Shown here: piece after piece, positions 6,295 to 63,374 of the stretch
Numbering within the stretch: the first letter of the stretch is position 1
Layout: every line of letters starts with the position of its first letter
Assembly: GCA_017462265.1 (NCBI GenBank)
Contig: JAFTRN010000050.1
Span: 26,147 to 90,146 of the forward strand
Reading direction: 5' to 3'
From: Coprobacter sp.
GTDB taxonomy: Bacteria > Bacteroidota > Bacteroidia > Bacteroidales > UBA11471
Length of the DNA: 64,000 nucleotides
Notes under the pieces: generated by a model
Seen by the model: only the letters and a program-made list of their open reading frames with translations
Told to the model about the DNA's origin: nothing
The model's database searches: none
Program-made: the position numbers and the translations under genes

Positions 6295-6489
6295 CTAAAT
6301 AAAAACAACTTTAAAAGTATTTCGAAATAAATTTTCTTTAATATTCACAACAAAATAATCTTTGACGCATTAAATACCGTCGTTTGATTTTTTATATTAC
6401 ATAAATTACGCTTATTGCGTTGTATTTAAGTCAAATTTGCTATTTTTGTGTACACTATTTTGAAACCCGATTCTAAAAGCTTTTGAGAT

Positions 6490-34451: not shown

Positions 34452-37400
34452 TCACTTTTTCACTACACGGAAGGTTTTGTGGTCGCCGTTGTGGGTAAGG
34501 GTGATATAATATACCCCGGGGGCGTAGGCCGACATATCGACTGATTGAGGTTCTGTGGCTTGGAACGTGGTAGCACATACCACTCGACCGGCTGCGTCGG
34601 TAATCGACAGCATGACTATACCCGAGCAGGCCCGTGTGGCGTCGATATGGCAATTGTCCTCCACAACTTGCGGATAGATACGCACCCTATCCTCGCCCGG
34701 CGACTTGATACCCGACACCTCGGCTACGGCTATCACCCCATCGCTTGTGAGACGACTGCCGTCCCATACCAACCCTTCACCGGGAGTACCATCAATAATA
34801 AATGTACCGGTGGTGGTTCCGGTCACGGCAAAGAGGGTAATCTCGTCGCCCGGCGCAAACGTGCGTCCGTCAGCCACAATGCGCAACGTATCGCTACCCA
34901 GCGACAGGTTTCCGCCCACCGACAATCTATCGTTGCCGGTGGCCGTGATACGCATCACAAGCGTTGCCCCGGTCGCACCCGATACCGTGCCCGACACCGA
35001 GAGTGTACCCGGCTCGTCGGTGCTACCGGGAGCCAATACCGCACCTTTCTGCAACGACACACTCTTCACAATACCCGTGCCTCGCAACATAGCGCCATTC
35101 TGCACCGTCACTTTATTAGCTGCCGCGCCACTCGCGTTATCGACCGAGAGCACACCGGCATACACGCCGATATTCGACGAGGTATTGCTGCCACCGGTGA
35201 GAGTCCAGGTGCCGGTTCCATACTTATTCACCGACGACGAAAGTACACCGGCAAATGTGGCATCGGCATGGTTATAACCCACGTTGTAGGTACCGTTTTT
35301 CACCGTGGCGGTAGTCGATGACGACGACAACGCTCCTATCGACGAGGTGAGCGATTGCGAGGAACCGCTACCACTCTTGAAGTGTCCCATCGTAACGCCA
35401 TCGCCCAAATCGACCGTAGTTCCCTTCATCGACATGGCGCTACATAAGCGGAAATCGCTTCCCGTTACATACAATCGTCCAGTGAACGAACTCCAGCTTG
35501 CCTTCATATCGGTGCGGACATAGGGTATGGTGAGGCGTATCGTACCCGCACCACTGAACGAACCGTTGATATAGCAACGCTGACCGGCAGCCAACGTCAC
35601 ATCGGCCCCCTCGGGCACGGTGACTTTATAATTGAAATTGGGTATCTGTGAGGTGTTGTTATTGTTGAATATCTGCACCGTACCACCCTTCATCACCAGC
35701 GACGAACCGAGTGCGCCAAACGTAGAGGTGTACGAGCCTTGCGCCAACGTACCGGCCTCGACCACCGTTCCTCCCTTATAGGTATTGGCACTGCCATAGG
35801 TGATATTCAACTGACCGTTGCCTCGTTTCACGAGCGTACCATTACCGCTTATCAGACCTTTGAGACTGGTATATCCTTTCTGTATATCGAGCGACACGCT
35901 ATCGGTAATCGACATCCGACTGTCGGTCGATGTGTTGGCGTTGTTCACCGACAAAGTCGCGTTTTGCAACTGCAACACGCCCGAGGCACCGAGACTGCTC
36001 GGTTGCCCCGCGTCGGAGAGCGCCGCGACTACCGTAGTACCACCGTTGAGTATGGTCGTACCGGTATAGTCGTTCTTGGTGGAGTTTATAATCAATGTTC
36101 CCGCGCCCGACTTGGTAAGTCCGCCGGTACCACTGAATCCGCCGGCGCCGTTTTGCACATATTCCGCCGTCGTATTATTGAAATAGAGGCCGGTCGTTTC
36201 ATACAGGTCGTCGGTCGAAATCACAGTATTCGTCGCATTATCATCGAATGTCACTGCGTCGCCGGCTACAAAGGTTGTAGCCTCATCGGCGAGCGAGAAA
36301 TTCTCGGTTTCAAAGTCCCATGCACCCGAGAAGGTTCCCGTCCAGTGCACTCCGGTCGAAGCGCTGCGCTGCTCTTTCACCACCAGTACTATCGATTTCT
36401 CTTGTATCTGCAATTCATAGGGGAAGCCTTTCAACCCTTTCACAGCAAGGTTTTCAAGCGAACCTGTAATTTCTCCGCTCCAACGAATCAGGACATATTC
36501 ACCCGGTAACGGACGCGCCTCAGCCGTCACCATATTGATGACCGATACACCCGAGAGGGAGAAATCGCCATTGATTGTAATAAGGTCGCTCACGATCGTA
36601 TCGGCAGTCTGCAAATTCATTTCGAGATATACGTTATCGGTCAAGGCAAGACCTTTCTCAAAAGTTATCACGCCAAAAGGCTCGGCCTCGGTACCGGGCG
36701 ACAGACGACAGCCCTCATAGTTGAGCGCGCCCTCGAATACACAATCGCCGGCTACCACGGCATTGCCCGCCAATGTACCACGGGCACGCAGGTCGAGGAG
36801 GCTCTTTATGGTGTCATTCAGCGCCAACGTACCCTCGGATATAATCGTCTTACCGGTATGTCGCAACGGCATATTCACCACCAACGTACCCTCCATCGAC
36901 TTCCACAACTCCATATCACCGGCAAAGCCTCCGGTTCCGGTCCATGTATATTGTTGTCCCCGAGGAGTCATTACATACACCGCCGAGGGCAAAAGCGTTT
37001 CATTGATAGTAATCGGCTGCGAGGCATCGCCCGATATATCGAAAAGCACACTCTTTCCGTCGGCATACACGGTATTTTCGTCGCGAGCAAACGATACAAA
37101 CGCATCGGTCGCCGCGACACTCCACTCGCTACCACCACGCCACACCACGTCGGTCACCATCGAAGGGGGCAACGGAGGTGTGGGCATATCATAGCCGAGA
37201 TAGTAATCGGGCAACGGGCTTTGGTAATATCCACGCGTGGTGCACTGCATACGATAGGCGGGGTTCTGTTGCAAACAATAGAGTGCCACATCGGTGGGGT
37301 AATCGGTCGTAAAACCTACGATACCTGAGCAACCGGTCTCGTCGCCTCTGCGCAAAATCACCTCATCGCGCCAGTCGCCTATCATATCGCCAAAATACAT

Positions 37401-39059
37401 CGGACGCACGCCATAGGTACTACTTACCGTCCAATTCGATATTTTGGCCATCTCTATCAGTCGGGTATTGTTGAATTTTCCCACATACGCGTTGAATCCG
37501 TTACCATCGGGCGAGGCCAGTCGTTCACGATCGAGCGATCCGTCCCACCATACGCCCTCGGTGGGGAATATCATCGAACCCTCTGTTATGAGTTCACCCT
37601 TGCAATCGTAGAGATTGCCCATGGTGCTCCACATTTCATATCCCTTATGAGTAGAATCCACGTCCATACACTCGCCACGACCTACATCGCCCACAGCGGC
37701 CAAGTACCACTTCTTTATGGACTCACCGGTAGAGGCGTCGTACAATATCTGGCCGAGCATATCGCCGGCATTCTGCTGTATGGCAAACGTTTCAAGGCCC
37801 GGACGATCGGGATCTATATCGCCCATGCGGAAGCGGTCGCCGTGAGAAATACCGGCACTGAACAGCATCTCGCCATTATCATCGACCACGAAACCGCCAT
37901 CAAGGATTTCGTCTTTACCATCACGATCGACGTCGCCTATGCGTATATGGTGGAACTCGGCCGGCCAAGGCGTCTTATCGTTACGACTCCAAGTAAAATG
38001 TTCTTTCCACGCCCCTGCTTTTCCCGACGAGAAATCATAACCCCACGCCGACACATAATAGTGGTGCGTCTTATCGGTAGTGCGCACCATATACTCCATC
38101 GCCACACTCGGGTGCACGCCATCGAGGTAACATATACCCATGTGACCGTTGAGCAGGTTATAAGGGGTATCCATATAGTTGGCCTTATTGGTACGGCTGT
38201 AGGTATCGGTACCATCGCTCGGGAAGGGCATCTCTATCGTAACCACCTCCGCACCGGTGAGTCCATCGACCACGGTGATATATTGGGGAGGATTCTTCAC
38301 ACTCTGCGTATTGTAATCGATTATACCATCACCATCGGTATCGCCATCGGCACTACCTTTGAGGTAGGCTCCCCATGTATCATTCGTTTTATCCCAGAAA
38401 CGGGTTCCGTCGCTACTCTTTATCACCACTTCAGAGCGACCGTCGCAATCCATGTCATAGGCGATGACCATATCGTCGTGACCGGCCGATATATCCACAT
38501 TAGGCCCCATATCTACTGTCCACAGATGCTCTCCCATGCGGGTATAGCCCTCTATCTTATGGGTATTACCGGTCGTGGAGCGACGATCCACCACATAGTC
38601 GTATTCACCATCGCCGGTAAGGTCGGCCGGCCATATAAACTTGGTGGTGTATTCGTTATGCGACAACAAGGTATCGTAGGTAATCTCCATAAACACGCTA
38701 CGCATATCGTGACCGGTGAAAGCATAGGCGTCGCTCATCGGTTGTTCCACGCCATCGACTACCACCGCCACGGCTATTTCATGCCCCGTGGGTATCACGC
38801 TCGTGGTGGTAGAATAGTTGGTCACCGATAGCGGGGCGTCGTTCACCCGCGTGTAACTGTCGCTACCTATGGTTCGGGTATAGAGATTGTACTGTGCCGT
38901 CTCGGCCTCTTGCGCCAATTTACGCCACGACACAAAGACCTTTTCACCGTTCTTCACGGCTACGACACCACGTCCGAGAGGCTGTTGTAATCGTTGAGCC
39001 GACAGCGAACATACGATAAATACAAATAGTACTACGAAAGAAATACGATAATTTTTCAT
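34452..39059 (-). CDS. PL11-family rhamnogalacturonan lyase fused to autotransporter-associated beta-strand repeats and a T9SS C-terminal sorting domain
   Basis: The N-terminal ~620 aa track the remembered B. subtilis YesW/YesX sequence. Shared pieces include RGVVAVKNGEKVFVSWR, DMDCDGRSEVVIKSSDG, GDVDRDGKDEI...SHGDRFRMGDIDPDRPGLE, VGRGECMDVD, WWDGSLDRE and GDWRDEVI. The middle ~800 aa are G/T/S-rich repeats (GTLVVN, GAGTLIIN, GGTTVV and similar). The C-terminus, IYPQVV...VYYITLTHNGDHKTFRVVKK, resembles a T9SS type A CTD. Confidence 0.8.
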   Translation of the reverse strand: MKNYRISFVVLFVFIVCSLSAQRLQQPLGRGVVAVKNGEKVFVSWRKLAQEAETAQYNLYTRTIGSDSYTRVNDAPLSVTNYSTTTSVIPTGHEIAVAVVVDGVEQPMSDAYAFTGHDMRSVFMEITYDTLLSHNEYTTKFIWPADLTGDGEYDYVVDRRSTTGNTHKIEGYTRMGEHLWTVDMGPNVDISAGHDDMVIAYDMDCDGRSEVVIKSSDGTRFWDKTNDTWGAYLKGSADGDTDGDGIIDYNTQSVKNPPQYITVVDGLTGAEVVTIEMPFPSDGTDTYSRTNKANYMDTPYNLLNGHMGICYLDGVHPSVAMEYMVRTTDKTHHYYVSAWGYDFSSGKAGAWKEHFTWSRNDKTPWPAEFHHIRIGDVDRDGKDEILDGGFVVDDNGEMLFSAGISHGDRFRMGDIDPDRPGLETFAIQQNAGDMLGQILYDASTGESIKKWYLAAVGDVGRGECMDVDSTHKGYEMWSTMGNLYDCKGELITEGSMIFPTEGVWWDGSLDRERLASPDGNGFNAYVGKFNNTRLIEMAKISNWTVSSTYGVRPMYFGDMIGDWRDEVILRRGDETGCSGIVGFTTDYPTDVALYCLQQNPAYRMQCTTRGYYQSPLPDYYLGYDMPTPPLPPSMVTDVVWRGGSEWSVAATDAFVSFARDENTVYADGKSVLFDISGDASQPITINETLLPSAVYVMTPRGQQYTWTGTGGFAGDMELWKSMEGTLVVNMPLRHTGKTIISEGTLALNDTIKSLLDLRARGTLAGNAVVAGDCVFEGALNYEGCRLSPGTEAEPFGVITFEKGLALTDNVYLEMNLQTADTIVSDLITINGDFSLSGVSVINMVTAEARPLPGEYVLIRWSGEITGSLENLAVKGLKGFPYELQIQEKSIVLVVKEQRSASTGVHWTGTFSGAWDFETENFSLADEATTFVAGDAVTFDDNATNTVISTDDLYETTGLYFNNTTAEYVQNGAGGFSGTGGLTKSGAGTLIINSTKNDYTGTTILNGGTTVVAALSDAGQPSSLGASGVLQLQNATLSVNNANTSTDSRMSITDSVSLDIQKGYTSLKGLISGNGTLVKRGNGQLNITYGSANTYKGGTVVEAGTLAQGSYTSTFGALGSSLVMKGGTVQIFNNNNTSQIPNFNYKVTVPEGADVTLAAGQRCYINGSFSGAGTIRLTIPYVRTDMKASWSSFTGRLYVTGSDFRLCSAMSMKGTTVDLGDGVTMGHFKSGSGSSQSLTSSIGALSSSSTTATVKNGTYNVGYNHADATFAGVLSSSVNKYGTGTWTLTGGSNTSSNIGVYAGVLSVDNASGAAANKVTVQNGAMLRGTGIVKSVSLQKGAVLAPGSTDEPGTLSVSGTVSGATGATLVMRITATGNDRLSVGGNLSLGSDTLRIVADGRTFAPGDEITLFAVTGTTTGTFIIDGTPGEGLVWDGSRLTSDGVIAVAEVSGIKSPGEDRVRIYPQVVEDNCHIDATRACSGIVMLSITDAAGRVVCATTFQATEPQSVDMSAYAPGVYYITLTHNGDHKTFRVVKK

Positions 39060-44049: not shown

Positions 44050-44622
44050 ATGGGACACCACCAATTAGACTATTTAGACTACAAGATCTTAAAAATGATC
44101 GCCGCGGACGCTCGTACTCCGTTTTTGGAAGTAGCTCGCGAATGTAATGTATCCGGAGCAGCCATTCACCAACGTGTGCAGAAGCTCATCAATCTGGGCA
44201 TCATCAAAGGCTCGGAATTCACTCTCGACTCCAACCGCATAGGGTTCGAAACCTGCGCATATATCGGTGTATTCTTGCAAGCCCCGGGACAATTCAAAGA
44301 TGTCATTGAAAAACTGAAAGAGATTCCCGAAGTGGTAGAATGTCACTACACGACCGGGCAATATGATATGTTCTTGAAAATTTATGCCCGCAACAACAAT
44401 CATCTGCTACAAATCATTCACACCAAATTGCAACCCCTGGGATTGGCTCGTACCGAGTCGATTATCTCTTTCAAAGAGGCTTTCCGTCGTCAGCTTCCCA
44501 TTGAGAATTTGGTATATCGCGAGTCCAACAGCACCGAAGATGAAGAGGAAACCGGCTTCACCATCTCTCCCAAACCTCGCAGAAGACGCAATCGCTCCAA
44601 AGAAGAAAAAGGCTCCAAATAA
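44050..44622 (+). CDS. Lrp/AsnC-family transcriptional regulator with an acidic-then-basic C-terminal tail
   Basis: LDYKILKMIAADARTPFLEVARECNVSGAAIHQRVQKL is the HTH, followed by a RAM-like domain. The extra tail is ...STEDEEETGFTISPKPRRRRNRSKEEKGSK. Confidence 0.8.
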   Translation: MGHHQLDYLDYKILKMIAADARTPFLEVARECNVSGAAIHQRVQKLINLGIIKGSEFTLDSNRIGFETCAYIGVFLQAPGQFKDVIEKLKEIPEVVECHYTTGQYDMFLKIYARNNNHLLQIIHTKLQPLGLARTESIISFKEAFRRQLPIENLVYRESNSTEDEEETGFTISPKPRRRRNRSKEEKGSK

Positions 44623-44650
44623 GAGCCTCGGTTTCTTATAAATTACATAC

Positions 44651-44681
44651 AAAAAGTGTCTGAGATTTCAGGCACTTTTTT
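44651..44681 (+). terminator. rho-independent terminator after the Lrp/AsnC gene
   Basis: aaaaagtgtctga / tcaggcacttttt forms a hairpin with a T-run. Confidence 0.7.
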
Positions 44682-44824
44682 GTTCAGTATAGATTTTCGA
44701 TTTTTTTCGCAAACATATGTGAACAGCTATACAATAACCTTGTTTTCTTACAAAAACGAACTATTTTTTCCGGCAGATTTTCAAAGAAGTTGTTTTAAAT
44801 TTGCAACCGTTTTTTCGACTAAAA

Positions 44825-45784
44825 ATGCAACTATCCAACAAAGCCAAAGGGGTATTATGCGGAAGCATCGCCGCCATAAGCTATGGCACCAATCCTCTCG
44901 GCGCCCTATACCTCTACGATGTCGGCCTCAATGTCGACTCGGTACTGCTGTATCGATATGCACTCGCCGCACTGATGTTGGCAGGAATCATGAAATTGCG
45001 ACGCATACCTTTTGCCATAGCCCGGCGTGAAGGTCTCGTACTGGGCATTTTGGGCATACTATTCGCAGCCTCCTCGCTACAGTTGTTTTCGAGTTTTCAC
45101 TACATGGACGCAGGTATAGCCTCCACGCTCCTTTTTGTATATCCCATCATAGTAGCGGTAATCATGGCTATCTTTTTCCACGAGCGAGTATCTCTCGCGA
45201 CAATACTCTCCATCGCCTTGGCTCTATGTGGTATCGCTCTCCTGTATAAAGGCGACGACGGTGTAGAACTCGACATCTACGGGGTGATACTGGTAATGCT
45301 CTCCTCGCTCTCATACGCCCTCTACATCGTCATAGTAAACCGCTCGGGAGTGCGTATGTCGTCAGTGAAACTCACCTTTTACGTTCTCCTATTCGGCATC
45401 GCCACAATTACAGTCCACTCTTTTATTGCCGAAGGCAGTCGATTACAACCCCTCACCACACCCTATATGTGGTTTTTCGCTTTCATCTTGGCGCTGTTTC
45501 CCACGGTTGTTTCCTTGGTCACCATGGCTATATCGGTACAACACATAGGCTCTACCCCTACCGCCATACTCGGTGCATTGGAGCCACTCACCGCGGTAGC
45601 CATAGGTGTAATGGTATTCGGCGAACCCTTTACGACCCGACTGGCATCGGGTATCGTGCTCATACTCCTCGGCGTAACGCTCATCATCGCCGGCAAATCT
45701 CTGCGTACAAGCCATTTATACACGCTTTTACACATTAGACATAAGGGTGATAATGATCTTCATAGCAACAGTGACAACGATTAA
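44825..45784 (+). CDS. EamA/DMT-family transporter
   Basis: The protein has ten hydrophobic segments in a duplicated EamA pattern. I moved the start to ATG 44825. Confidence 0.7.
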   Translation: MQLSNKAKGVLCGSIAAISYGTNPLGALYLYDVGLNVDSVLLYRYALAALMLAGIMKLRRIPFAIARREGLVLGILGILFAASSLQLFSSFHYMDAGIASTLLFVYPIIVAVIMAIFFHERVSLATILSIALALCGIALLYKGDDGVELDIYGVILVMLSSLSYALYIVIVNRSGVRMSSVKLTFYVLLFGIATITVHSFIAEGSRLQPLTTPYMWFFAFILALFPTVVSLVTMAISVQHIGSTPTAILGALEPLTAVAIGVMVFGEPFTTRLASGIVLILLGVTLIIAGKSLRTSHLYTLLHIRHKGDNDLHSNSDND

Positions 45785-45818
45785 TAAGCGAAATAGTCGC
45801 CGACCGAAATATTTTTTA

Positions 45819-45826
45819 TACCTTTG
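45819..45826 (+). promoter_or_regulatory. -7 promoter box TACCTTTG upstream of trpS
   Basis: The TAnnTTTG motif lies 34 nt before ATG 45861. Confidence 0.45.
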
Positions 45827-45860
45827 TCCTATCATTAACCTCGACAATACTACATACTAT

Positions 45861-46853
45861 ATGAGAGAAACTGTTGTGAGCGGAATACGCTCTACCGGAA
45901 ACCTGCACTTGGGTAACTATTACGGCGCGTTGCGCAACTTTGTGAAGATGCAGCATGAGCACGATTGTTACTTCTTCATCGCCGACCTGCACTCACTGAC
46001 TACGCACCCCGATCCCAAAATGCTACACGTCAATGTGAAAAATATATTGGCCGAGTATCTGGCCGCCGGTCTCGACCCCGAAGCCTGCTCGCTGTTCATA
46101 CAAAGCGACGTACCCGAGGTTTCGGAGCTATATCTGTTGCTGAATATGCACGTGTATATAGGCGAGCTCGAACGCACGGCCTCATTCAAAGACAAAGTGC
46201 GTAAACAGCCCGAGAATGTGAATGCCGGCCTGCTTACCTACCCCACCCTCATGGCCGCCGACATCATGATACATCGCGCTACCAAAGTGCCCGTAGGTAA
46301 AGATCAGGAACAACACCTCGAAATGACACGTCGCTTCTCGCGTCGTTTCAATACCATATATGGCGTGGAATATTTCCCCGAGCCTACCGGATTCAACTTC
46401 GGTGAGGCGGCTATCAAAGTGCCCGGACTCGACGGAAGCGGGAAAATGGGCAAGTCCGAAGGTAACTGTGTATATCTGCTCGACGACGAAAAGACCTTGC
46501 GCAAAAAAGTGATGCGCGCCGTTACCGACGAAGGTCCCCAAGCCCCCAATTCACCCAAATCGGAGCCGGTGGAAAACCTCTTCACCATCATGAAGATCGT
46601 ATCATCGCCCGACACCGTGGAATATTTTGAAGAGAAATACAACTCTTGCGAAATACGTTATGGTGATATGAAAAAACAATTGGCCGAGGATATACTGAAA
46701 GTGACGCTGCCCATCAGAGAGCGTATATTGGAAATACAGAACGACAACGACTATATGCGTCGTGTCGTAGCGCAAGGTGCCGAAAAAGCCCGTGAAAGTG
46801 CCGCCAAGACACTGCGCGAGGTAAGAGAGATTATGGGCTTCCGCTCGTTCTAA
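45861..46853 (+). CDS. trpS: tryptophan--tRNA ligase
   Basis: The class I HIGH-like motif is TGNLHLGNY and the KMSKS motif is GKMGKSEGN. I moved the start to ATG 45861. Confidence 0.9.
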   Translation: MRETVVSGIRSTGNLHLGNYYGALRNFVKMQHEHDCYFFIADLHSLTTHPDPKMLHVNVKNILAEYLAAGLDPEACSLFIQSDVPEVSELYLLLNMHVYIGELERTASFKDKVRKQPENVNAGLLTYPTLMAADIMIHRATKVPVGKDQEQHLEMTRRFSRRFNTIYGVEYFPEPTGFNFGEAAIKVPGLDGSGKMGKSEGNCVYLLDDEKTLRKKVMRAVTDEGPQAPNSPKSEPVENLFTIMKIVSSPDTVEYFEEKYNSCEIRYGDMKKQLAEDILKVTLPIRERILEIQNDNDYMRRVVAQGAEKARESAAKTLREVREIMGFRSF

Positions 46854-46866
46854 TCCATCGCGTGCC

Positions 46867-47781
46867 ATGTCTCACGAGCACCACCATCATCACCATCACG
46901 CGGTCGATACCTCACATCTGAACCGAGCGTTCATCGTGGGTATCGGCTTGAATGTGGCGTTCGTCGTGGCCGAGGCTGTAGCCGGATTCTCCATCGACTC
47001 ACTGGGGTTACTCGCCGATGCGGGGCACAACCTCAGCGACGTTATCAGCCTCGTATTGGCTCTGCTGGCTTTCCGCTTATCGAAAGTGCGGCCCTCGGGC
47101 AACTACACCTATGGGTACAAAAAAAGTACCATCTTGGTATCACTGCTCAATGCCCTCATTCTGCTCATCGCCGTAGGCTTCATTTTCGTCGAGAGTATAG
47201 AGAAAATTCACACACCACAACCCATTGCCGGACGCACAATCTCTATCGTGGCCGGGATAGGCATACTCATCAACGGCATCACGGCGTGGCTCTTTTTCAA
47301 AGATCGTCGGCACGACCTCAACATCAAAGGGGCTTTTCTGCATATGGCCGCCGATACATTGGTGAGCGTTGGCGTATTGGTATCGGGCATACTCATTTCG
47401 GTCACGGGGTGGAGCATTATCGACCCGATAATAGGCCTCGTCATAGCCTGCATCATACTCATATCCACGTGGGAACTGCTACGCGACAGCCTACGGTTGT
47501 CGCTCGACGGCGTGCCCGCGCATCTGCATACATCGGTGGTGGAGCGTCTGTTGTGCGAAGACAAGCGGGTTGTATGCGTGCACCATCTGCATATATGGGC
47601 CATAAGCACCACGCAGAACGCGCTCACCGCTCATATCGTCGTGAATACATTTGATAAATCGGATATACTGAAACACGACCTGCGCCACCGCCTCGAAGAA
47701 ATAGGCATACAGCATGCCACATTCGAGCTGGAACTGCCCCACGAGGATTGCCATGCCTCTCGCTGCGACTGCGACGCATAA
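46867..47781 (+). CDS. cation diffusion facilitator (CzcD/ZitB-like Zn/Co/Cd efflux)
   Basis: The N-terminus is MSHEHHHHHHHA. The transmembrane motifs LLADAGHNLSDV and HMAADTLVS match the CDF signature. Confidence 0.85.
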   Translation: MSHEHHHHHHHAVDTSHLNRAFIVGIGLNVAFVVAEAVAGFSIDSLGLLADAGHNLSDVISLVLALLAFRLSKVRPSGNYTYGYKKSTILVSLLNALILLIAVGFIFVESIEKIHTPQPIAGRTISIVAGIGILINGITAWLFFKDRRHDLNIKGAFLHMAADTLVSVGVLVSGILISVTGWSIIDPIIGLVIACIILISTWELLRDSLRLSLDGVPAHLHTSVVERLLCEDKRVVCVHHLHIWAISTTQNALTAHIVVNTFDKSDILKHDLRHRLEEIGIQHATFELELPHEDCHASRCDCDA

Positions 47782-47868
47782 CGACGACTTGTAGTTACGA
47801 CGGAAATATCGTATCTTCGCACTCCATTCGCCTACAACGGCACTTTTTTATCCACTACGGAGCCGGAT

Positions 47869-49530
47869 ATGGCTTCGAAAAACAAAGTTTATACAATGAT
47901 TTCAGTTGACGGACTTACCGTGGAATTTGGAGGCACAACGCTTTTCCAAGAGATATCTTTTGTAATCAACGAAAAAGACCGCATCGCCCTCATGGGGAAA
48001 AACGGTGCCGGGAAATCGACCCTGCTGAAAATTCTGGCCGGAGTACGCCAACCCACACGCGGTAGCGTATCGGCCCCCAAAGATACGGTTATAGCCTATC
48101 TGCCCCAGCACCTCATGACCGAGAACACCCGTACCGTGTTCGAGGAAACCTCGCAGGCCTTTGCCCACCTTTTCGAGATGGAGGCCGAGATAAACCGCAT
48201 GAACGAAGAGCTGGCCACACGCACCGACTACGAGAGCGAGAGCTACTACAACCTTATAGAGCAGGTGGCGGCACTGAGTGAGAAATTCTACGCCATAGAC
48301 CTCACCCACTTCGAGGAAGACGTGGAAAAAATATTGCTCGGTCTCGGATTCGATCGCAAAGATTTCGATCGCCCCACAGGTGAATTCAGCGGGGGCTGGC
48401 GTATGCGTATAGAACTGGCCAAATTGCTGCTGAAAAAGCCCGATGTACTACTGCTCGACGAACCGACCAACCACCTCGACATAGAGTCGATACAATGGCT
48501 CGAAGAGTTTCTCATCAACAACGGTCAGGCGGTCATCGTCATATCGCACGACAGGGCTTTTGTCGATCACATCACCACCCGCACCATAGAGGTGACGATG
48601 GGACGCATCTACGACTACAAAGTGAACTACTCGCAATACCTCGTGCTACGCAAGGAGCGCCGCGAACAACAACTCAAGGCCTACAACGACCAGCAAAAAA
48701 TGATTGCCGAGACCAAGGAGTTTATCGAGCGATTCAAAGGCACCTATTCCAAGACGTTGCAAGTGCAATCGCGCGTAAAAATGCTGGAAAAACTCGAACT
48801 GGTAGAGGTCGATGAAGAAGACACCTCGGCACTGCGGCTGAAATTTCCACCGGCACCCCGTTCGGGCTCCTACCCCGTGATAGCCGACGGCGTGGGCAAG
48901 TGCTACGACCGACGCGTCTTTGCCAATGCCACATTCACCATAGAACGCGGTGAGAAAGTAGCCTTCGTAGGGAAAAACGGTGAGGGAAAATCGACCATGG
49001 TAAAGTGCATCATGCACGAAATAGAGCACGAAGGCACGCTCACACTCGGTCACAACGTGATGATAGGCTATTTCGCCCAGAACCAGGCCTCGCTGCTCGA
49101 CGAGAACCTCACCGTGTTCCAAACCATCGACGATGTGGCCAAAGGCGATGTACGCTTGCAAATACGCGACCTGCTCGGAGCATTCATGTTCGGTGGCGAG
49201 GAATCGACCAAGAAAGTAAAAGTGCTGTCGGGTGGCGAACGTACCCGCCTCGCCATGATAAAGCTCCTGCTCGAGCCTGTGAACCTGCTCATTCTCGACG
49301 AGCCTACCAATCACCTCGACATGAAGACCAAAGACATCTTGAAGAGCGCCCTGCAAGCCTTTGATGGTACGCTCATCGTGGTAAGTCACGACCGTGATTT
49401 CCTCGATGGATTGGTATCGAAGGTCTATGAATTCGGCGAAGGACGTGTACGCGAGCACCTCGGTGGTGTGTACGACTTCCTCGAAAAGAAACGCATCGAA
49501 AATCTCTCCGACCTCGAACGACGCAAATAA
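47869..49530 (+). CDS. ABC-F family ATPase (translation-associated, no transmembrane domains)
   Basis: There are two ABC cassettes: GKNGAGKST...FSGGWRMR...LLLDEPTNHLD and GKNGEGKST...LSGGERTR...LILDEPTNHLD. Confidence 0.9.
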   Translation: MASKNKVYTMISVDGLTVEFGGTTLFQEISFVINEKDRIALMGKNGAGKSTLLKILAGVRQPTRGSVSAPKDTVIAYLPQHLMTENTRTVFEETSQAFAHLFEMEAEINRMNEELATRTDYESESYYNLIEQVAALSEKFYAIDLTHFEEDVEKILLGLGFDRKDFDRPTGEFSGGWRMRIELAKLLLKKPDVLLLDEPTNHLDIESIQWLEEFLINNGQAVIVISHDRAFVDHITTRTIEVTMGRIYDYKVNYSQYLVLRKERREQQLKAYNDQQKMIAETKEFIERFKGTYSKTLQVQSRVKMLEKLELVEVDEEDTSALRLKFPPAPRSGSYPVIADGVGKCYDRRVFANATFTIERGEKVAFVGKNGEGKSTMVKCIMHEIEHEGTLTLGHNVMIGYFAQNQASLLDENLTVFQTIDDVAKGDVRLQIRDLLGAFMFGGEESTKKVKVLSGGERTRLAMIKLLLEPVNLLILDEPTNHLDMKTKDILKSALQAFDGTLIVVSHDRDFLDGLVSKVYEFGEGRVREHLGGVYDFLEKKRIENLSDLERRK

Positions 49531-49559
49531 TCCACCTACCGACATCAGTATAGAGCAAA

Positions 49560-49593
49560 GGGGCTGTGTCAAAATCGATATTGACATAGCCCC
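49560..49593 (+). terminator. terminator-like hairpin after the ABC-F gene
   Basis: ggggctgtgtcaa / ttgacatagcccc forms a 13-bp stem with one G-U pair. Confidence 0.6.
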
Positions 49594-49619
49594 TTGTCGT
49601 AAAAAGCTCCTTCTTTCTT

Positions 49620-50012
49620 ATTAGTGTCCAATTTATGTGGCGAAATAAAAAGAGAGGCTTTATTAGAAGATTGCCGTTAGGTAATCGATATTCCAGCCCC
49701 GTATAAGAGAGCCGGTAGGCGAACGCAATGCGGGGAATGTAAGGTATTCGTAATAATCAATGCCTTTAGGTATTGGACAATTTCATTATAGCAACATCTT
49801 CGACATTGCTGTTTTTTTACGTGTATCTACCCAAAACTCTACATCGGAGACGTTGCTTTATTGAGTATTCCATTCGTTTTTTCTCCCGGCAGACGCTTGG
49901 CCCAAGCGTCCCTGCGTTTTGTAGGTCAGACACTGCTTATCGTAGGGAGAGTAAGGCCGTAGAGGAAACACTAAATGTAAATCTTCAAAACTATATATCG
50001 GGCACCAATGAT
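49620..50012. repeat. MITE-like structured repeat element, copy 2
   Basis: The ends are attagtgtccaat... and ...atcgggcaccaatgat. The core 49668-49778 is the reverse complement of 32728-32839, with about eight differences by eye. Confidence 0.8.
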
Positions 50013-54420: not shown

Positions 54421-57400
54421 TTAGTCTAAGGAGATACTCAATCCGAGACCGCGCAACTCGTGCAACAGCACGTTGAGTGACTCGGGAATACCCGGGGTAG
54501 GCATCGGATCGCCCTTGACGATGGCTTCGTAGGCTTTGGAACGTCCCACCACGTCATCGGATTTGATGGTAAGGATTTCTTGTAAGATGTAAGCGGCGCC
54601 GAATGCCTCGAGTGCCCATACCTCCATCTCTCCGAAACGTTGACCACCGAATTGAGCCTTACCACCGAGAGGTTGCTGAGTGATAAGCGAGTACGGACCG
54701 ATAGAACGCGCGTGCATCTTGTCTTCAACCATGTGACCGAGTTTGAGCATATAGATTACACCCACGGTTGCAGGTTGGTCAAAACGCTCACCTGTGTGGC
54801 CGTCGTAAAGGAAAGTTTTACCATAACGAGGCAGGCCGGCTTTGTCGGTCCACTCATTGAGATCATCGAGTGACGCTCCGTCGAAGATGGGAGTAGCGAA
54901 TTTCTCGCCCAGGGTTACACCGGCCCAGCCCAATACGGTCTCGAATATCTGACCGAGGTTCATACGAGAAGGCACACCCAGCGGGTTCAATACGATATCT
55001 ACGGGAGTACCATCTTCGAGGAAAGGCATATCCTCCTGACGTACGACACGCGATACGATACCTTTGTTACCGTGACGACCGGCCATCTTATCACCCACGC
55101 TTATCTTACGTTTCTTGGCGATATATACTTTGGCCATTTGCACGATACCCGAGGGCAGTTCATCGCCGATAGAAATATCAAATTTACGACGACGCAACTC
55201 GGCATCATACTCTTTATATTTCTTCAAGTAGTTCATGATGGTAGCGCGTATCAGGTCGTTCTTGGCCGCATCGCTGGTCCATTTACTTACTTGAATCGAT
55301 GTGTAGTCTATTTCCGAAAGATTTTTCTGGGTGAATTTAGCCCCTTTGGCTATCACGTCGATACCCAGATAATCTTTCACTCCTTGCGAAGTCTTTCCGT
55401 TGGTAAGCGTCAGCAGTTTATCGATGAGAATCACTTTGAGCGCTTCCATCTTTTCCTTATACTCTTCATCGAGCTGAGCCAGCAGAGCGGCCTCGGGGCT
55501 CTTGCCTTTGCGTTTCTTTATGGCTTTCGAGAAGAGGGCGGTACCGATTACCACACCTTTGAGCGACGGAGTGGCTTTGAGCGACGCGTCTTTCACATCA
55601 CCGGCTTTGTCGCCGAAGATGGCACGGAGCAGTTTTTCCTCGGGCGAGGGATCGGATTCACCTTTGGGGGTAATCTTACCTATCATTATATCACCCGGCT
55701 CGATGTGGGCACCGATACGCACGATACCGCGTTCGTCGAGGTCCTTGGTAGCATCTTCGCTCACGTTAGGAATATCCGAGGTAAGTTCCTCCATACCGCG
55801 TTTTGTCTCGCGCACTTCGAGCGAGTACTCATCGACGTGTACCGAGGTGAGAATATCTTCACGCACGATACGCTCGTTGAGCACAATAGCGTCCTCATAG
55901 TTGTAACCTTTCCAGGGCATGAATGCCACTTTGAGGTTGCGACCGAGAGCCAATTCACCGTTTTCGGTCGAATAACCTTCGGTGAGTATCTGTCCGGTCA
56001 CCACACGATCGCCTTTGCGACAGATGGGACGCAAGTCGATCGTCGTACTCTGGTTGGTCTTGCGGAATTTCGGGATATTATATTCTTTTACAGACGACTC
56101 GAAGCTGACAAATTCTTCATCTTCTGTACGGTCGTAACGAATGCGGATGGTGGTGGCATCGACAAATTCGATAACACCGGGACCTTCGGCGGTAATCTGG
56201 GTACGAGAGTCGCGTATGAGCTGACCTTCGATACCGGTACCTACGACAGGAGCTTCTGTGCGTAACAGAGGTACGGCCTGGCGCATCATGTTCGAACCCA
56301 TGAGCGCACGGTTGGCGTCGTCGTGTTCGAGGAAGGGAATGAGAGATGCGGCTATCGAAGCAATCTGCATGGGCGATACGTCCATGAGCGACACCTCTTG
56401 CGGTCCTACAACGGGGAAGTCGGCATTCAGACGCGATTTTACACGCGAGCGAATGAATGTACCATCATCGTTGAGAGGAGCGTTACCTTGCGCGATGATA
56501 TGATCCTCTTCCACCTCGGCGGTGAGATATACGATTCCATCTTGCGACAAATCGACCTTTCCGTTTTCCACTTTACGATACGGTGTCTCGATAAATCCGA
56601 GGTCATTGATTTTTGCATATACGCAGAGCGACGAAATAAGACCGATGTTGGGACCCTCAGGAGTTTCGATAGGACACAGACGTCCATAGTGAGTATAGTG
56701 TACGTCGCGCACCTCGAAACCTGCACGTTCGCGCGAGAGACCGCCGGGACCGAGAGCCGAGAGACGACGCTTGTGAGTCATTTCGGCCAGCGGGTTGGTC
56801 TGGTCCATGAATTGCGACAAAGCGTTGGTACCAAAGAATGTGTTGATTACCGACGATATAGTTTTGGCGTTGATAAGGTCTATGGGGGTAAACACCTCAT
56901 TATCGCGCACATTCATACGTTCGCGTATCGTACGCGACATACGTGCGAGACCTATGCCGAATTGATTGTAGAGCTGCTCACCCACCGTGCGCACACGACG
57001 GTTGCTCAAGTGGTCGATGTCATCGACATCGGTCTTGGAGTTGATAAGCTCTATCAAATATTTAATAATCTCTATGATATCCTCTTTTGTAAGAACTTTG
57101 ATATCGGGAGATATAGTGAGTCCGAGTTTTTTGTTTATACGGTAACGTCCTACTTCACCCAAGTCATAACGTTTCTCAGAGAAGAAAAGGTTGGTGATGA
57201 CCTCACGGGCACTTGCGTCATCGGCCGGCTCGGCGTTACGCAGCTGGCGATAGATGTAGATGACGGCCTCTTTTTCGGAGTTACTGGGGTCTTTCTGCAA
57301 CGTGTTGTAGATGATGGCATAGTCGGAGAGATTATTTTCCTCCTTGTGCAGGAGTATCGTAGAGACTCCTGTCTCGAGTATCATATCAATATGATCCTCC

Positions 57401-58233
57401 TCGAGTACCACCTCACGCTCGATGACCACTTCGTTACGTTCTATTGACACAACCTCACCGGTATCGGCGTCGGCATAGTCCTCAACCCATGTTCTCAACA
57501 CACGGGCAGCCAATCGACGACCGAGAGCCTTTTTCAAGTTGGTCTTCGTAACCTTCATCTCTTCGGCAAGACCGAAGATTTCGAGAATGTCTTTATCGCT
57601 TTCGAAACCTATCGCACGCAACAACGTGGTAACGGGCAATTTCTTCTTACGATCGATATAGGCATACATCACATTGTTGATGTCGGTGGCAAATTCTATC
57701 CAAGAACCCTTGAACGGAATAATACGAGCCGAATAGAGTTTCGTACCATTGGCGTGGATACTCTGTCCGAAGAATACACCCGGCGAACGGTGCAACTGCG
57801 ACACGACAACACGTTCGGCACCATTAATCACAAAGGTACCTTTCTCGGTCATATAAGGAATAGGACCAAGATAGACATCTTGAATTACGGTGGCGAAGTC
57901 TTCGTGATCGGGGTCGGTACAGAACAGTTTGAGTTTAGCCTTCAAAGGCACACTGTATGTGAGACCGCGTTCGAGACACTCGTCTATCGTGTAACGGGGC
58001 GGATCGATGTAATAATCGAGGAATTCGAGGACGAAGTTGTTGCGAGTATCGGCAATAGGGAAGTTTTCTGCAAATACTTTGTAGAGACCCTCGTTTTTAC
58101 GTTTCTCGGGAGGGGTATCCAATTGCAGAAAATCTTGGAACGATTTCAACTGCACCTCCAAGAAGTCCGGGAATTGAAGCGGATTCTTGATAGAGGCGAA
58201 GTTTACCCGCTGTTTACCTATATTTTGAGACAT
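54421..58233 (-). CDS. rpoB: DNA-directed RNA polymerase subunit beta
   Basis: The 1270-aa protein contains [39 protein letters not shown] and ...[18 protein letters not shown]. Confidence 0.98.
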
Positions 58234-58279
58234 TTGTCAGAAGTTGGTTAATTGAACTTGTAAATCATAGACACAAAAT

Positions 58280-58312
58280 GGTAAAGAACCCTCTTTTAGA
58301 GGTTTCTTTACC
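58280..58312 (-). terminator. rplL-rpoB intergenic attenuator/terminator hairpin
   Basis: The minus strand reads ggtaaagaaacctctaaaagagggttctttacc, followed by attttg. This is the classical position of a partial terminator. Confidence 0.65.
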
Positions 58313-58337
58313 AGAATGACCTGTTAGACAGGATTTC

Positions 58338-58712
58338 TTATTTAAGTTCAACTTCAGCGCCGGCCTCTTCGAGGACTTTTTTCAGCGCTTCAGCGTCGGC
58401 TTTAGCCAAGCCTTCTTTGATTGCACTGGGAGCACCGTCAACCAAATCTTTAGCTTCTTTCAAGCCGAGACCGGTTTGCTCTTTAACGGCTTTAACAACT
58501 GCGAGTTTGTTAGCACCGGCAGCTTTCAATACAACATCGAAAGAGGTTTTTTCTTCCTCAGCAGCGGCAGCACCGGCTGCGGGAGCGGCAACAGCAACAG
58601 CTGCAGCTGCGGGTTCAATACCATATTCCTCTTTGAGGATTTGAGCCAACTCGTTTACTTCTTTTACGGTCAGGTTTACTAATTGTTCTGCAAAAGCTTT
58701 CAAATCTGCCAT
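58338..58712 (-). CDS. rplL: 50S ribosomal protein L7/L12
   Basis: The protein has an Ala-rich hinge, and its C-terminus reads [27 protein letters not shown]. Confidence 0.97.
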
Positions 58713-58759
58713 TTTCGTATAGTTTAATTGTTATTTTACTTCTGTGAATTGTTTTGTTT

Positions 58760-59272
58760 TTATCTTTCTGATAGAGTTTGCAACACTCCATGAATGGTAG
58801 TACCACCTGATTGCAATGCCGAAACAACGTTCTTGACGGGAGATTGCAGCAATGCGATAACATCGGCGATAAGTTCGTTTTTGCTCTTGATAGCCACCAA
58901 AGCATCGAGTTGGTCGGCACCATAGAAACTCTCTTCTACGAAAGCGGCCTTGAAGCCCAGTTGATCGTTGTCTTTTTTCAGAGCTTTGATCAATTTGGCA
59001 GGCGCGTTTCCGGTATTGGAAAGCATCAAAGTGGTAGAGCCTTTCAGACTGCCATAGAGCGACGAGTAGTCTCCTTCGAGATTCTCAAGCGCTTTTTTCA
59101 GCAGGGTGTTCTTTACAACCATCAATTTGATATCGTTCTTGAAACACTCACGACGCAATTTCGAAGTTTTTTCGGCATTGAGGGTGGTGGTTTCGGCCAA
59201 ATAGATATGGCTGTATTCTTTCAGAGTTGCGGTAATCTGCTCGATTACTGTACCTTTATCTTCCTTTCTCAT
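58760..59272 (-). CDS. rplJ: 50S ribosomal protein L10
   Basis: The 170-aa protein sits between rplA and rplL and shows the L10 pattern ...LRRECFKNDIKLMVVKNTLL. Confidence 0.95.
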   Translation of the reverse strand: MRKEDKGTVIEQITATLKEYSHIYLAETTTLNAEKTSKLRRECFKNDIKLMVVKNTLLKKALENLEGDYSSLYGSLKGSTTLMLSNTGNAPAKLIKALKKDNDQLGFKAAFVEESFYGADQLDALVAIKSKNELIADVIALLQSPVKNVVSALQSGGTTIHGVLQTLSER

Positions 59273-59286
59273 AATTCCGTCTCTTT

Positions 59287-59985
59287 TTAAATCTCATCTA
59301 CTGATTTCGGTTCGATCTTGATACCCGGACTCATTGTACTCGAAAGATAGATACTCTTCATGTAGGTACCTTTTGCAGTAGCAGGTTTCAGTTTGATAAG
59401 CGTAGCGATAAATTCTTTTGCGTTTTCGCGAATTTGCTCGGGAGCGAACGAAACTTTACCTATCGAGGTGTGAACAATACCGTTTTTGTCAACTTTGAAG
59501 TCGATTTTACCTTGCTTAACCTCTTTTACAGCCTTAGCAACCTCATTGGTTACAGTACCGCTTTTGGGGTTAGGCATCAAACCGCGGGGACCCAATACAC
59601 GTCCGAGTGCACCGATTTTACCCATGATGGCGGGTTGAGTGATGATAACGTCGATATCGGTCCAACCACCTTTGATTTTCTCGATATATTCGTCAAGACC
59701 TACATAATCGGCACCGGCGGCCTTAGCGTCGGCTTCTTGGTCGGGAGTACAGAGGGCAAGTACACGTACTTGTTTTCCGGTTCCGTGAGGAAGCGATACT
59801 ACGCCTCTCACCATTTGATTAGCTTTACGGGGGTCAACACCCAAACGTACGTCGATGTCAACCGAAGCATCAAATTTGGTAAAAGTTATCTCTTTCACCA
59901 ATTGTGCAGCCTCTTTCAGTGAATAGGTTTTCCCTGCTTCAATTTTCTCGAAAGCTAACTTTTGTTTTTTTGTCAGTTTACTCAT
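59287..59985 (-). CDS. rplA: 50S ribosomal protein L1
   Basis: [34 protein letters not shown] matches L1. Confidence 0.97.
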
Positions 59986-60000
59986 TTCAATTGAAGTTTA

Positions 60001-60444
60001 TTAGTTATTGGTCGGGAACTCCCCACTTACGGATATACCCATACTTCTTGCTGTACCGGCAACCATCTTCATTGCCGATTCCAAGGTAAAACAATTGAGG
60101 TCAACCATCTTGTCTTCTGCAATCGTTTTTACCTGCTCCCAAGTAATGCTAGCCACTTTTTTACGGTTAGGCTCGGCCGAACCGCTCTTTTGTTTGGTTA
60201 CTTCCAACAATTGAATAGCTACAGGAGGAGTTTTTACAACAAAGTCGAAAGATTTGTCGGCGTAATACGTAATGATTACAGGCAATACCTTACCGGCTTT
60301 GTCTTGAGTACGGGCATTGAATTGCTTGCAAAACTCCATAATATTAATACCCTTGGAACCCAATGCAGGGCCAACGGGGGGAGAGGGGTTTGCTGCACCA
60401 CCTTTAATCTGTAATTTGATTTGTCCAGCAATTTCTTTAGCCAT
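60001..60444 (-). CDS. rplK: 50S ribosomal protein L11
   Basis: [35 protein letters not shown] matches L11. Confidence 0.97.
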
Positions 60445-60505
60445 TGTTTTTTTGTTTTAGATAGTTAAAACAAGAAAGCATAACAACAATACGTAACCAT
60501 TGTCG

Positions 60506-61048
60506 TTATTCCTTCTCTACTTGCATAAATCCTAATTCCAACGGAGTTTTACGTCCGAAGATTTTAACCATTACCTTGAGTTTCTTCTTCTCGTTGTTCA
60601 CCTCTTCAATGATACCACTGAATCCGCTGAACGGTCCGAAAGTCACCTTCACAGTCTCGCCTACCACATACGGAATGACGATTTCGGGTTCTTCCGCAGC
60701 GCCATCGATAGCACCGAGCATACGGTTCACTTCCGACGGTCTTAACGGATCGGGATTTAACGTCCCACCCAAAAATCCAATTACGTTCGTGGTGTTTCGC
60801 AGACGATGGGGAACCTCACCTACAAGTGTAGCCTCAACAAAAACGTACCCCGGATAGAGATTTCTTTCCTTGAGTACTTTCTTGCCATTGGGGCGCACTG
60901 CATAGACTTTTTCGGTCGGAATCAACACCTGATATACAAAATCGCCAAGGGTGGTGTTCTTGATTTCAGCATCAAGATACTCTTTCACCTTAGCTTCTTT
61001 ACCACTTATGGCACGCAATACGTACCAACCTCTTTTCTGTTCAGACAT
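60506..61048 (-). CDS. nusG: transcription termination/antitermination factor NusG
   Basis: WYVLRAISGKEAKVKEYL is the NGN domain. The C-terminal KOW domain reads GETVKVTFGPFSGFSGIIEEV. Confidence 0.95.
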   Translation of the reverse strand: MSEQKRGWYVLRAISGKEAKVKEYLDAEIKNTTLGDFVYQVLIPTEKVYAVRPNGKKVLKERNLYPGYVFVEATLVGEVPHRLRNTTNVIGFLGGTLNPDPLRPSEVNRMLGAIDGAAEEPEIVIPYVVGETVKVTFGPFSGFSGIIEEVNNEKKKLKVMVKIFGRKTPLELGFMQVEKE

Positions 61049-61063
61049 TGAATTACCTCCGAA

Positions 61064-61258
61064 TTAGAAAATTTTGTCGTAGATAAATTCCATGAGATGC
61101 TCAAAGCCCTGGTCCATCACAAATATTACTACGGCGATAATAAGGGAAGCAAACATAACCACCACAGCACTACTGCTCAGCTCAGCCCGAGTGGGCCAGG
61201 ATACTTTATAAACGAGTTCGTTGTACGACTCTTTTATATTTGCAAGTATTTTTTTCAT
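61064..61258 (-). CDS. secE: preprotein translocase subunit SecE
   Basis: The 64-aa protein has a single transmembrane segment, contains YKVSWPTRAEL, and lies upstream of nusG. Confidence 0.9.
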   Translation of the reverse strand: MKKILANIKESYNELVYKVSWPTRAELSSSAVVVMFASLIIAVVIFVMDQGFEHLMEFIYDKIF

Positions 61259-61274
61259 TGTTATTTCAGATTTG

Positions 61275-61347
61275 CACGGGACGAGAGGCTCGAACTCCCG
61301 ACACCTGGTTTTGGAGACCAGTGCTCTACCAACTGAGCTAGTCCCGT
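61275..61347 (-). tRNA. tRNA-Trp (anticodon CCA)
   Basis: The reverse complement is acgggactagctcagttggtagagcactggtctCCAaaaccaggtgtcgggagttcgagcctctcgtcccgtg. It folds into a clean cloverleaf. Confidence 0.92.
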
Positions 61348-61353
61348 AAACAT

Positions 61354-61396
61354 TGGTAAGCCTCTCGTCTCTATGAGAGGTAAGAGGCTTACCAAA
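61354..61396 (-). terminator. hairpin between tuf and tRNA-Trp (terminator or processing stem)
   Basis: ttggtaagcctct / agaggcttaccaa forms a 13-bp stem. An alternative inner stem is cctctc/gagagg. Confidence 0.55.
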
Positions 61397-61422
61397 GGGA
61401 TTCTATCGACGATTATCGATTA

Positions 61423-62610
61423 TTAGTCCAAGATTTCGGTAATTTGTCCCGAACCTACGGTACGTCCACCTTCACGGATAGCGAAACGCAAACCTACGCT
61501 ACAAGCAACCGGATAGATGAGTTCTACAGCGATAGACACGTGGTCGCCGGGCATTACCATCTCAGTTCCTTCGGGGAGAGTAATCTCACCGGTAACGTCG
61601 AGGGTACGGATGTAGAATTGAGGACGATAGTGGTTGTGGAACGGAGTGTGACGACCACCTTCTTCTTTTTTCAAGATATACACTTGAGCTTTGAAGTTTT
61701 TGTGAGGAGTCACTTGACCCGGGTGGCAGATTACCATACCACGTTTGATTTCGTTTTTGTCGATACCACGAAGGAGGAGACCTACGTTATCACCGGCTTC
61801 ACCTTGATCGAGGAGTTTGCGGAACATTTCCACACCGGTAACAACCGATTTCTTACCTTCAGCACCGAGACCGATGATTTGAACCTCATCACCTACTTTG
61901 ATGATACCGGTTTCGATACGACCGGTAGCAACGGTACCACGACCGGTAATCGAGAACACATCTTCAACAGGCATCAAGAAAGGTTTATCGATGTCGCGCG
62001 GAGGCAGAGGAATCCAAGTATCTACAGCAGCCATGAGCTCCATAACTTTATCCTCCCATTGAGCTTCTCCGTTGAGAGCGCCAAGAGCAGAACCGCGAAT
62101 GATAGGAGTGTTATCGCCATCATATTCGTAAGAAGAGAGGAGTTCACGCATTTCCATTTCAACGAGTTCGAGCATCTCTTCGTCGTCAACCATATCACAT
62201 TTGTTCATGAAAACAACGATACGGGGAACGTTTACCTGACGAGCGAGAAGGATGTGCTCACGAGTTTGGGGCATAGGACCATCGGTAGAAGCTACTACGA
62301 TGATAGCACCGTCCATTTGAGCAGCACCGGTAACCATGTTCTTAACGTAGTCGGCGTGACCCGGGCAGTCTACGTGAGCATAGTGACGATTTTCGGTTTC
62401 ATACTCTACGTGTGAGGTATTAATGGTAATACCACGTTCTTTTTCTTCGGGAGCGTTATCGATTTGATCGAAAGAGCGCAATTCGGAAAGGCCTTTTTTA
62501 GCAAGCACCGTGGTAATAGCAGCGGTCTAGGTAGTTTTACCGTGGTCGTCGTGACCGATGGTACCGATGTTTACGTGCGGCTTAGTCCGTTGAAATTGTT
62601 CTTTAGCCAT
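61423..62610 (-). pseudogene. tuf: elongation factor Tu, interrupted as sequenced by an in-frame TAG at codon 28; codon 21 is GAC (Asp) where the P-loop Val is expected
   Basis: Hand translation from ATG 62610 gives [46 protein letters not shown]... The TAG lies at 62529-62527 and the GAC at 62550-62548. The track ORF (361 aa) merely restarts at the internal GTG, codon 35. The remainder is a fully conserved EF-Tu sequence through ...[17 protein letters not shown]. Confidence 0.9.
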
Positions 62611-62660
62611 AATAGTATTTTTTGTTGTGATTAAGATTTCTCTGTTGTGTATTCACTTAG

Positions 62661-62732
<72 letters not shown>

Positions 62733-62741
62733 ATTTCTTTG

Positions 62742-62814
62742 AGCGGGAAACGGGGCTCAAACCCGCGACCCTCAGCTTGGAAGGCTGATGCTCTATCAAC
62801 TGAGCTACTCCCGC
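62742..62814 (-). tRNA. tRNA-Gly (anticodon TCC)
   Basis: The reverse complement is gcgggagtagctcagttgatagagcatcagcctTCCaagctgagggtcgcgggtttgagccccgtttcccgct. The D-loop reads GA and the T-loop TTT where GG and TTC are usual. This is an apparent 19-56 covariation. Confidence 0.88.
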
Positions 62815-62822
62815 AAAAATCG

Positions 62823-62905
62823 TGGGCGAAGATGGATTCGAACCACCGAAGTCGTAAGACAGCAGATTTACAGTCTGCCCCATTTGGCCACTCTGGTATT
62901 CGCCC
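62823..62905 (-). tRNA. tRNA-Tyr (anticodon GTA)
   Basis: The reverse complement is gggcgaataccagagtggccaaatggggcagactGTAaatctgctgtcttacgacttcggtggttcgaatccatcttcgccca. It has a long variable arm. Confidence 0.9.
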
Positions 62906-63071: not shown

Positions 63072-63374
63072 TTACTTGACACGCATTTTTTCTTTACTTT
63101 TCTGCAATTGGCGCACCAGCGCATCGAGCGCTAAATCGACAGCCTCCTCAAAAGTATCGGCCACTTTCGACGAGAAAAGGTCTTCAGTCTTAGGCACTGA
63201 CAGCTTCACACCGACCTCTTTATTTTGTGCCGTTTCGGGTTTCAGTACTTTCAGAGTGATTTCGGCCGTCATTATATCGTCACTATAGCGCGAGAGCTTT
63301 TCCACTTTCTTCTGAATAAATTTTTCGAGTTGTTCCGATGCGTCGAAATGAATGGATTGAATTCTAATTTCCAT
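63072..63374 (-). CDS. hpf: ribosome hibernation promoting factor (HPF/RaiA family)
   Basis: MEIRIQSIHFDASEQLEKFIQKKVEKLSRY...VGVKLSVP...DTFEEAVDLALDALVRQL fits the HPF pattern. Confidence 0.85.
   Translation of the reverse strand: MEIRIQSIHFDASEQLEKFIQKKVEKLSRYSDDIMTAEITLKVLKPETAQNKEVGVKLSVPKTEDLFSSKVADTFEEAVDLALDALVRQLQKSKEKMRVK

Follow-up and report, generated by a model that had tools for sequence, protein, structure and literature searches.

Mutants of elongation factor Tu (EF-Tu) at Val20 are familiar from the older mutagenesis literature as engineered single substitutions in a full-length protein. The tuf gene examined here differs from these, as the record carries a Val-to-Asp change at codon 21, which we take to be the same P-loop valine (Val20 in E. 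coli numbering, homologous to Ras Gly12), together with a stop seven codons further on, and a functional product would never be expected from it. Set against canonical EF-Tu, the protein departs from the wild type at codons 21 and 28 only and aligns with PDB EF-Tu chains over residues 1-394, but its P-loop in the record reads GHDDHGKTT and then stops. A young nonsense pseudogene would likewise show a single in-frame stop in an otherwise intact frame; here, however, the stop is unshared in the population, comes without further lesions and is accompanied by no backup copy in the contigs searched. A different kind of precedent is provided by assembly itself, as inter-species repeats and the chimeric contigs that go with them are a described problem of short-read metagenome assembly (PMC8640167). 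As in errors of this kind, the lesion is found in one assembly only and affects the gene that is best conserved in this region, and nearby assemblies have a chimeric junction, substitutions of their own and internal duplications in tuf. Unlike in chimeras at inter-species repeats, the wrong bases are absent from the alleles of the other species compared.

The whole stretch of DNA that was analysed (64,000 nt, hereafter the window) is a contig from short metagenome reads and belongs to an uncultured, Coprobacter-like member of the Bacteroidales in the rectum of a ruminant. The NusG encoded next to tuf is residue-for-residue identical on 16 public contigs, which come from the ENA XIEF21-1_SAMN158299xx assemblies, MEGAHIT k141 contigs and Logan assemblies of SRR125293xx. 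This identical NusG carries the NCBI name 'MAG: ... [Coprobacter sp.]', and the EF-Tu of the strain is 94-96% identical to Coprobacter EF-Tu. Wherever they overlap, the window and the Logan contigs of run SRR12529333 (L004, L005 and L014) are 100% identical. This run is the sample 'Rectum-4' of Xie et al. 2021 (supplement, PMC8199421), who obtained 150-bp reads on NovaSeq, ran both IDBA-UD (--pre_correction) and MEGAHIT on these and combined the contigs through Minimus2 (PMC8199421). The window itself was presumably built by the same pipeline. Among its other genes, Pfam searches on identical public contigs identified a GmrSD-type (DUF262/DUF1524) nuclease gene (3972-6260, minus strand), a gene for SprA of type IX secretion (7136-14560, plus strand; 2474 aa) and one for a rhamnogalacturonan-lyase-like protein of 1535 aa with a Por secretion tail (34452-39059, minus strand).

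Two further observations concern the window outside the tuf region. A cation-efflux protein (46936-47781) and an ABC-F protein (47869-49530) have exact matches solely in Logan contigs, the ABC-F protein in SRR12529333 alone and the cation-efflux protein there and in two unrelated runs, and neither has an exact match in the ENA contigs that are otherwise ~100% identical to the window. Logan contigs of the unrelated runs DRR773953 and DRR773969 are 97.6-98.4% identical to the window at ~44500-49700, and this part looks like a strain-variable or recombined segment. In addition, an inverted intergenic repeat of ~115 nt is present at 49660-49778 (plus strand) and ~32728-32847 (minus strand), with 92% identity between the copies, each of which lies between convergent genes (ABC-F/rpoC and abhydrolase/PEGA, respectively). 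The repeat has a CCCCG...CGGGG stem and gave no Rfam match at E<=0.1; possible identities are an sRNA, a terminator module common to both sites or a small mobile repeat.

The tuf locus itself is arranged as tRNA cluster - tuf - tRNA-Trp - secE - nusG - rplK. Upstream of tuf, ARAGORN and Rfam place tRNA-Tyr(GTA) at 62822-62905, tRNA-Gly(TCC) at 62741-62814 and tRNA-Thr(GGT) at 62660-62732, and downstream of it tRNA-Trp(CCA) at 61274-61347, inside which the Logan contig L004 ends; secE (61064-61258) and nusG (60506-61048) are the conserved downstream neighbours, and all of these lie on the minus strand. This is the context described for Bacteroidales, and the order in the window equals that in the sister species and in Coprobacter, so that the tRNA-tuf-tRNA-Trp-secE-nusG setting claimed in an earlier note, which had been made from the sequence alone, was found as stated. 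We used secE and nusG to locate the same locus in other assemblies. In the same region, the genes for a XerC-like recombinase and an S30AE/HPF protein overlap by 11 nt in the window (63364-63374). They give one fused product of 399-400 aa in the Coprobacter contigs L021, L022, L025 and L026 and are called as two genes in the Coprobacter contigs L019, L020, L023 and L024.

The tuf frame (61423-62610, minus strand; 395 codons plus a stop) opens at ATG 62610 and, as translation shows, stays in frame to its natural stop at 61425-61423, with the interruption at codon 28. In a tblastn search of the window with the 395-aa wild-type protein P0006, the frame gave 99.5% identity over residues 1-395, the other 393 codons encoding P0006 exactly and the sole protein differences being codons 21 and 28. 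Codon 21 (62548-62550) is GAC (Asp), where GTG (Val) stands in every other contig of the strain, and two adjacent bases have changed on the coding strand (62549 T>A and 62548 G>C). Codon 28 (62527-62529) is TAG in place of the TTG (Leu) of all other strain contigs, through one base change (62528 T>A). The lesion thus consists of three base changes, and the gene as written has neither an intact G1 motif (P-loop) nor an uninterrupted frame. What is left is an ORF of 361 aa that starts at the internal GTG 62508 (61423-62508, minus strand) and is without the P-loop. The earlier note had described the GAC and TAG codons, the conserved remainder of the frame and this sole leftover ORF, and in all of these the sequence agrees with it. 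Its reading of the lesion as two single T-to-A changes holds for codon 28 and fails for codon 21, where it had supposed GTC>GAC, since the ancestral codons within the strain are GTG (Val) at 21 and TTG (Leu) at 28. A fourth window-private difference in tuf, at 61933 (codon 226, ACC versus ACT in all others), is a synonymous transition.

The affected motif is highly conserved, with GHVDHGKTTL present in 116 of 118 close homologues and Val at the position of codon 21 in 117 of the 118. The wild-type allele at the locus has the Pfam domains GTP_EFTU, D2 and D3, and its product matches PDB chain 6i8r_A over residues 1-394 with an E value of 2.4e-208.

At 53,275 of its 64,000 positions, the window could be compared with public contigs from its own population, and the agreement is almost perfect, L006 showing no difference in 21,344 bp and L011 a single difference in 20,759 bp. 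Over the 53,275 comparable bases, five differences are private to the window (6396, 61933, 62549, 62548 and 62528); four of the five are inside tuf (P ~1e-6) and three fall within 22 nt (P ~5e-6 or less). The one private difference outside tuf, at 6396, is intergenic, upstream of ruvA, and reads A in the window versus C in L011, L012 and L013. Wild-type EF-Tu (P0006) is encoded on nine contigs, all with a normal P-loop, and a further EF-Tu, P0007, encoded on a tenth contig (94 kb, spanning the whole window), also has a normal P-loop, so that at least 10 other contigs of the population contain an intact GHVDHGKTTL. The lesion is absent from every population contig that covers the P-loop, namely the nine with P0006, the one with P0007 and the chimeric contig L002 described below. 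Truncated products of the mutant allele (with starts at GTG 62508, TTG44 or ATG92) are on record in no public assembly, and a scan of public genome contigs and JGI metagenomes found no mutant allele, the window's own record being likewise absent from that collection. Across the assemblies compared, the lesion therefore proves to be private to one record.

It is in tuf that these assemblies disagree with each other. L016 (ERZ27256817 k141_731083), the 94-kb contig referred to above, which was built by MEGAHIT, departs from the window 6 times in 12,578 bp, each time within tuf, and has private tuf changes of its own at 62033 (ATG>AAG, M193K) and 61459 (ACC>ACG, synonymous). A further contig, L002 (ERZ27256823 k141_195380), equals the window from 56506 to 62052, bar the shared difference at 61933, but beyond that point (62053-62611 of the window) the 5' part of its tuf shows 53 private differences, and its upstream genes, encoding ApbE and diacylglycerol kinase (DAGK), are unrelated to those of the window. 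Judged from its sequence, L002 is a cross-species chimera with its junction inside tuf. EF-Tu products of 456-490 aa from ENA metagenome proteins (P0001-P0005 and P0009) have internally duplicated segments, in domains 1, 2 or 3, and apparently result from misassembly of tuf in other metagenomes. The full-length tuf of the strain is on no Logan (k=31) contig, although Logan contigs have its nusG.

The sequence of tuf may offer a basis for this behaviour. It is 94% identical to that of the sister species, whereas the surrounding region is just 87% identical, and the two tuf genes have exact runs of up to 107 nt in common; the P-loop itself lies within exact runs of 17 nt or less versus the species compared. 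Between the two species, tuf shows ~58 synonymous versus 6 non-synonymous codon differences, which points to strong purifying selection on the gene. The concentration of technical disagreement in tuf is as predicted from cross-species k-mer sharing, whereas real mutations should be rarest there.

Altogether, the three tuf changes are very probably a read, assembly, merging or later record error that is private to this record, in an organism that has an ordinary single-copy tuf encoding GHVDHGKTTL. We infer the error from the comparison of assemblies. It is read as an error because it is confined to one record while near-clonal assemblies of the population keep the normal P-loop, and because the gene concerned is one in which these assemblies are shown to fail. 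Outside the 22-nt cluster, the gene has one synonymous difference in 1,188 nt and shows no decay. The earlier note had listed error, a young pseudogene backed by a second copy, a subpopulation variant and readthrough or suppression without choosing among them, and had called any explanation but error remarkable. Among these options, error is favoured by the private lesion and by tuf being a trouble spot, and neither a second copy nor suppression or readthrough found support in the window and the contigs compared.

As to how the wrong bases may have arisen, the long exact stretches that tuf has in common with the tuf genes of co-occurring relatives would tangle the assembly graph, and at such a tangle a faulty consensus from the merging or a path through reads with errors could survive. 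The pipeline of Xie et al. 2021 has several consensus steps, which we count in favour of an error, and candidate points of entry are the IDBA-UD pre-correction, the Minimus2 merge consensus and a later corruption of the record. In run SRR12529333, the stage of the error could be placed with 31-mers that span CACGACGACCACGG and ACCTAGACCGC. A plain chimera between functional tuf alleles was considered and rejected, as the alleles of other species that we compared have GTG or GTA at codon 21 and TTG or CTT at codon 28, with T always at position 2, and none has A at position 2 of either codon.

The type of change is also unusual. The three lesion changes and both private tuf changes of L016 swap a base for its complement (5 of 5; P = 0.004 under equal substitution types). 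In the two-colour chemistry of NovaSeq, T is labelled green, C red, A both and G neither (PMC13218037), so that the members of the A/T and C/G pairs differ in the red signal only. Miscalls in the red channel at the level of reads, threaded into contigs at the tuf tangle, would fit this pattern. The published NovaSeq-specific artefact, however, is T>G / A>C and not A<->T or C<->G, and we therefore keep a two-colour artefact merely as a weak lead.

It appears quite unlikely that the changes instead stem from a real molecule, such as a low-frequency allele, damaged DNA or DNA of non-viable cells, that was threaded into the contig. Three in-phase changes within 22 nt would fit a single molecule or read, and a graph tangle at tuf would let minority paths survive, but assemblers normally keep the branch of higher coverage. 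Such an origin could be separated from pure sequencing error only with the reads, and in practice it would still be a consensus artefact.

Where tuf is present only once, cutting it short at codon 28 would be lethal, and a living population could therefore not have the recorded allele as its majority form. A real and recent inactivation of tuf by one complex mutation would have to be tolerated through a second functional tuf, for example a duplication that was collapsed in the assembly, and we consider this very unlikely. The lesion does stand in the record, the rest of the gene is as undecayed as that of a young pseudogene would be, and a second copy could lie outside the 64-kb window. Against this, the wild-type EF-Tu of the strain is found in one genomic context on all 9 contigs, the sister species (GCA_045606385.1) has the same single context, and so does Coprobacter EF-Tu in 8 of the 8 places listed, of 24 contigs. 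Moreover, no other near-clonal assembly of the population has the lesion, and the private oddities of the other assemblies are in tuf as well, suggesting a technical cause. The search for a second tuf that the earlier note had called for could be carried out on the window and the contigs: tblastn with wild-type P0006 revealed no second EF-Tu-like sequence within the 64-kb window, and the strain contigs gave the one context.

The stronger claim that the allele is real in the living Rectum-4 population, with an amber codon and a Val-to-Asp change in its only canonical tuf and survival through a second EF-Tu or through suppression of TAG, for instance with a suppressor tRNA supplied by a Bacteroidales phage that has recoded TAG, strikes us as most improbable. 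Decoding of the TAG by a suppressor tRNA, as pyrrolysine or through local or global reassignment, possibly originating from a TAG-recoded phage, is extremely unlikely. The sole point in its favour is that the frame stays open and perfect past the TAG. TAG, however, ends 6 of the 50 ORFs of at least 100 aa in the window, including those at 32950-32952 and 63364-63366 that the earlier note had cited as ordinary stops, and no other conserved gene in the window has an in-frame TAG, the long conserved genes for rpoB (1270 aa), rpoC (1421 aa) and SprA (2474 aa) being uninterrupted. The note's judgement that global codon reassignment is unlikely is borne out by these counts. Other contigs of the population encode Leu (TTG) at codon 28, and decoding would leave the accompanying Val-to-Asp change at a position that is Val in 117 of 118 homologues. 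ARAGORN found five tRNAs in the window (Leu-TAA, Trp-CCA, Thr-GGT, Gly-TCC and Tyr-GTA), and the search for a tRNA with a CUA anticodon, which the note had also proposed, gave none within the 64-kb window with either ARAGORN or Rfam.

A templated mutation, whether by gene conversion from a paralogue or by a template switch at a quasi-palindrome, is barely credible: complement-type changes would be expected from the correction of like-with-like mismatches in a hairpin and a 12-mer with the mutant first site recurs at 38484, but this match does not extend and is attributed to chance (of window positions picked at random, 16% likewise fall into a 12-mer that recurs), the second site has no donor longer than 8 nt in the window, no hairpin is gained (at -6.1 kcal/mol, the mutant fold is slightly less stable than that of the wild type at -7.5 kcal/mol, and both resemble shuffled sequence), and a real templated mutation would still be lethal. 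Mutagenesis of the diversity-generating retroelement (DGR) type was rejected by reasoning, as one of the three altered bases belongs to a G:C pair; no Pfam reverse-transcriptase domain was found among the genes on the contigs with which 53,275 of the window's 64,000 bases could be compared. A common motif at both sites (TYGACC/AYGACC) was likewise discarded, as it came from aligning the two sites out of register and neither motif is depleted in the window.

If the lesion were real, the loss or recoding of a single EF-Tu gene would be extraordinary. In all likelihood, the tuf lesion is not a real biological feature of this organism, and the locus instead provides a clean example of a metagenome-derived record in which a universally conserved gene bears what looks like a lethal lesion. 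Comparison with other assemblies of the same population exposes record errors of this kind quickly. Scans of metagenome-assembled genomes for 'broken essential genes' should expect false positives, above all in tuf and in other genes that have long exact stretches in common between co-occurring species.
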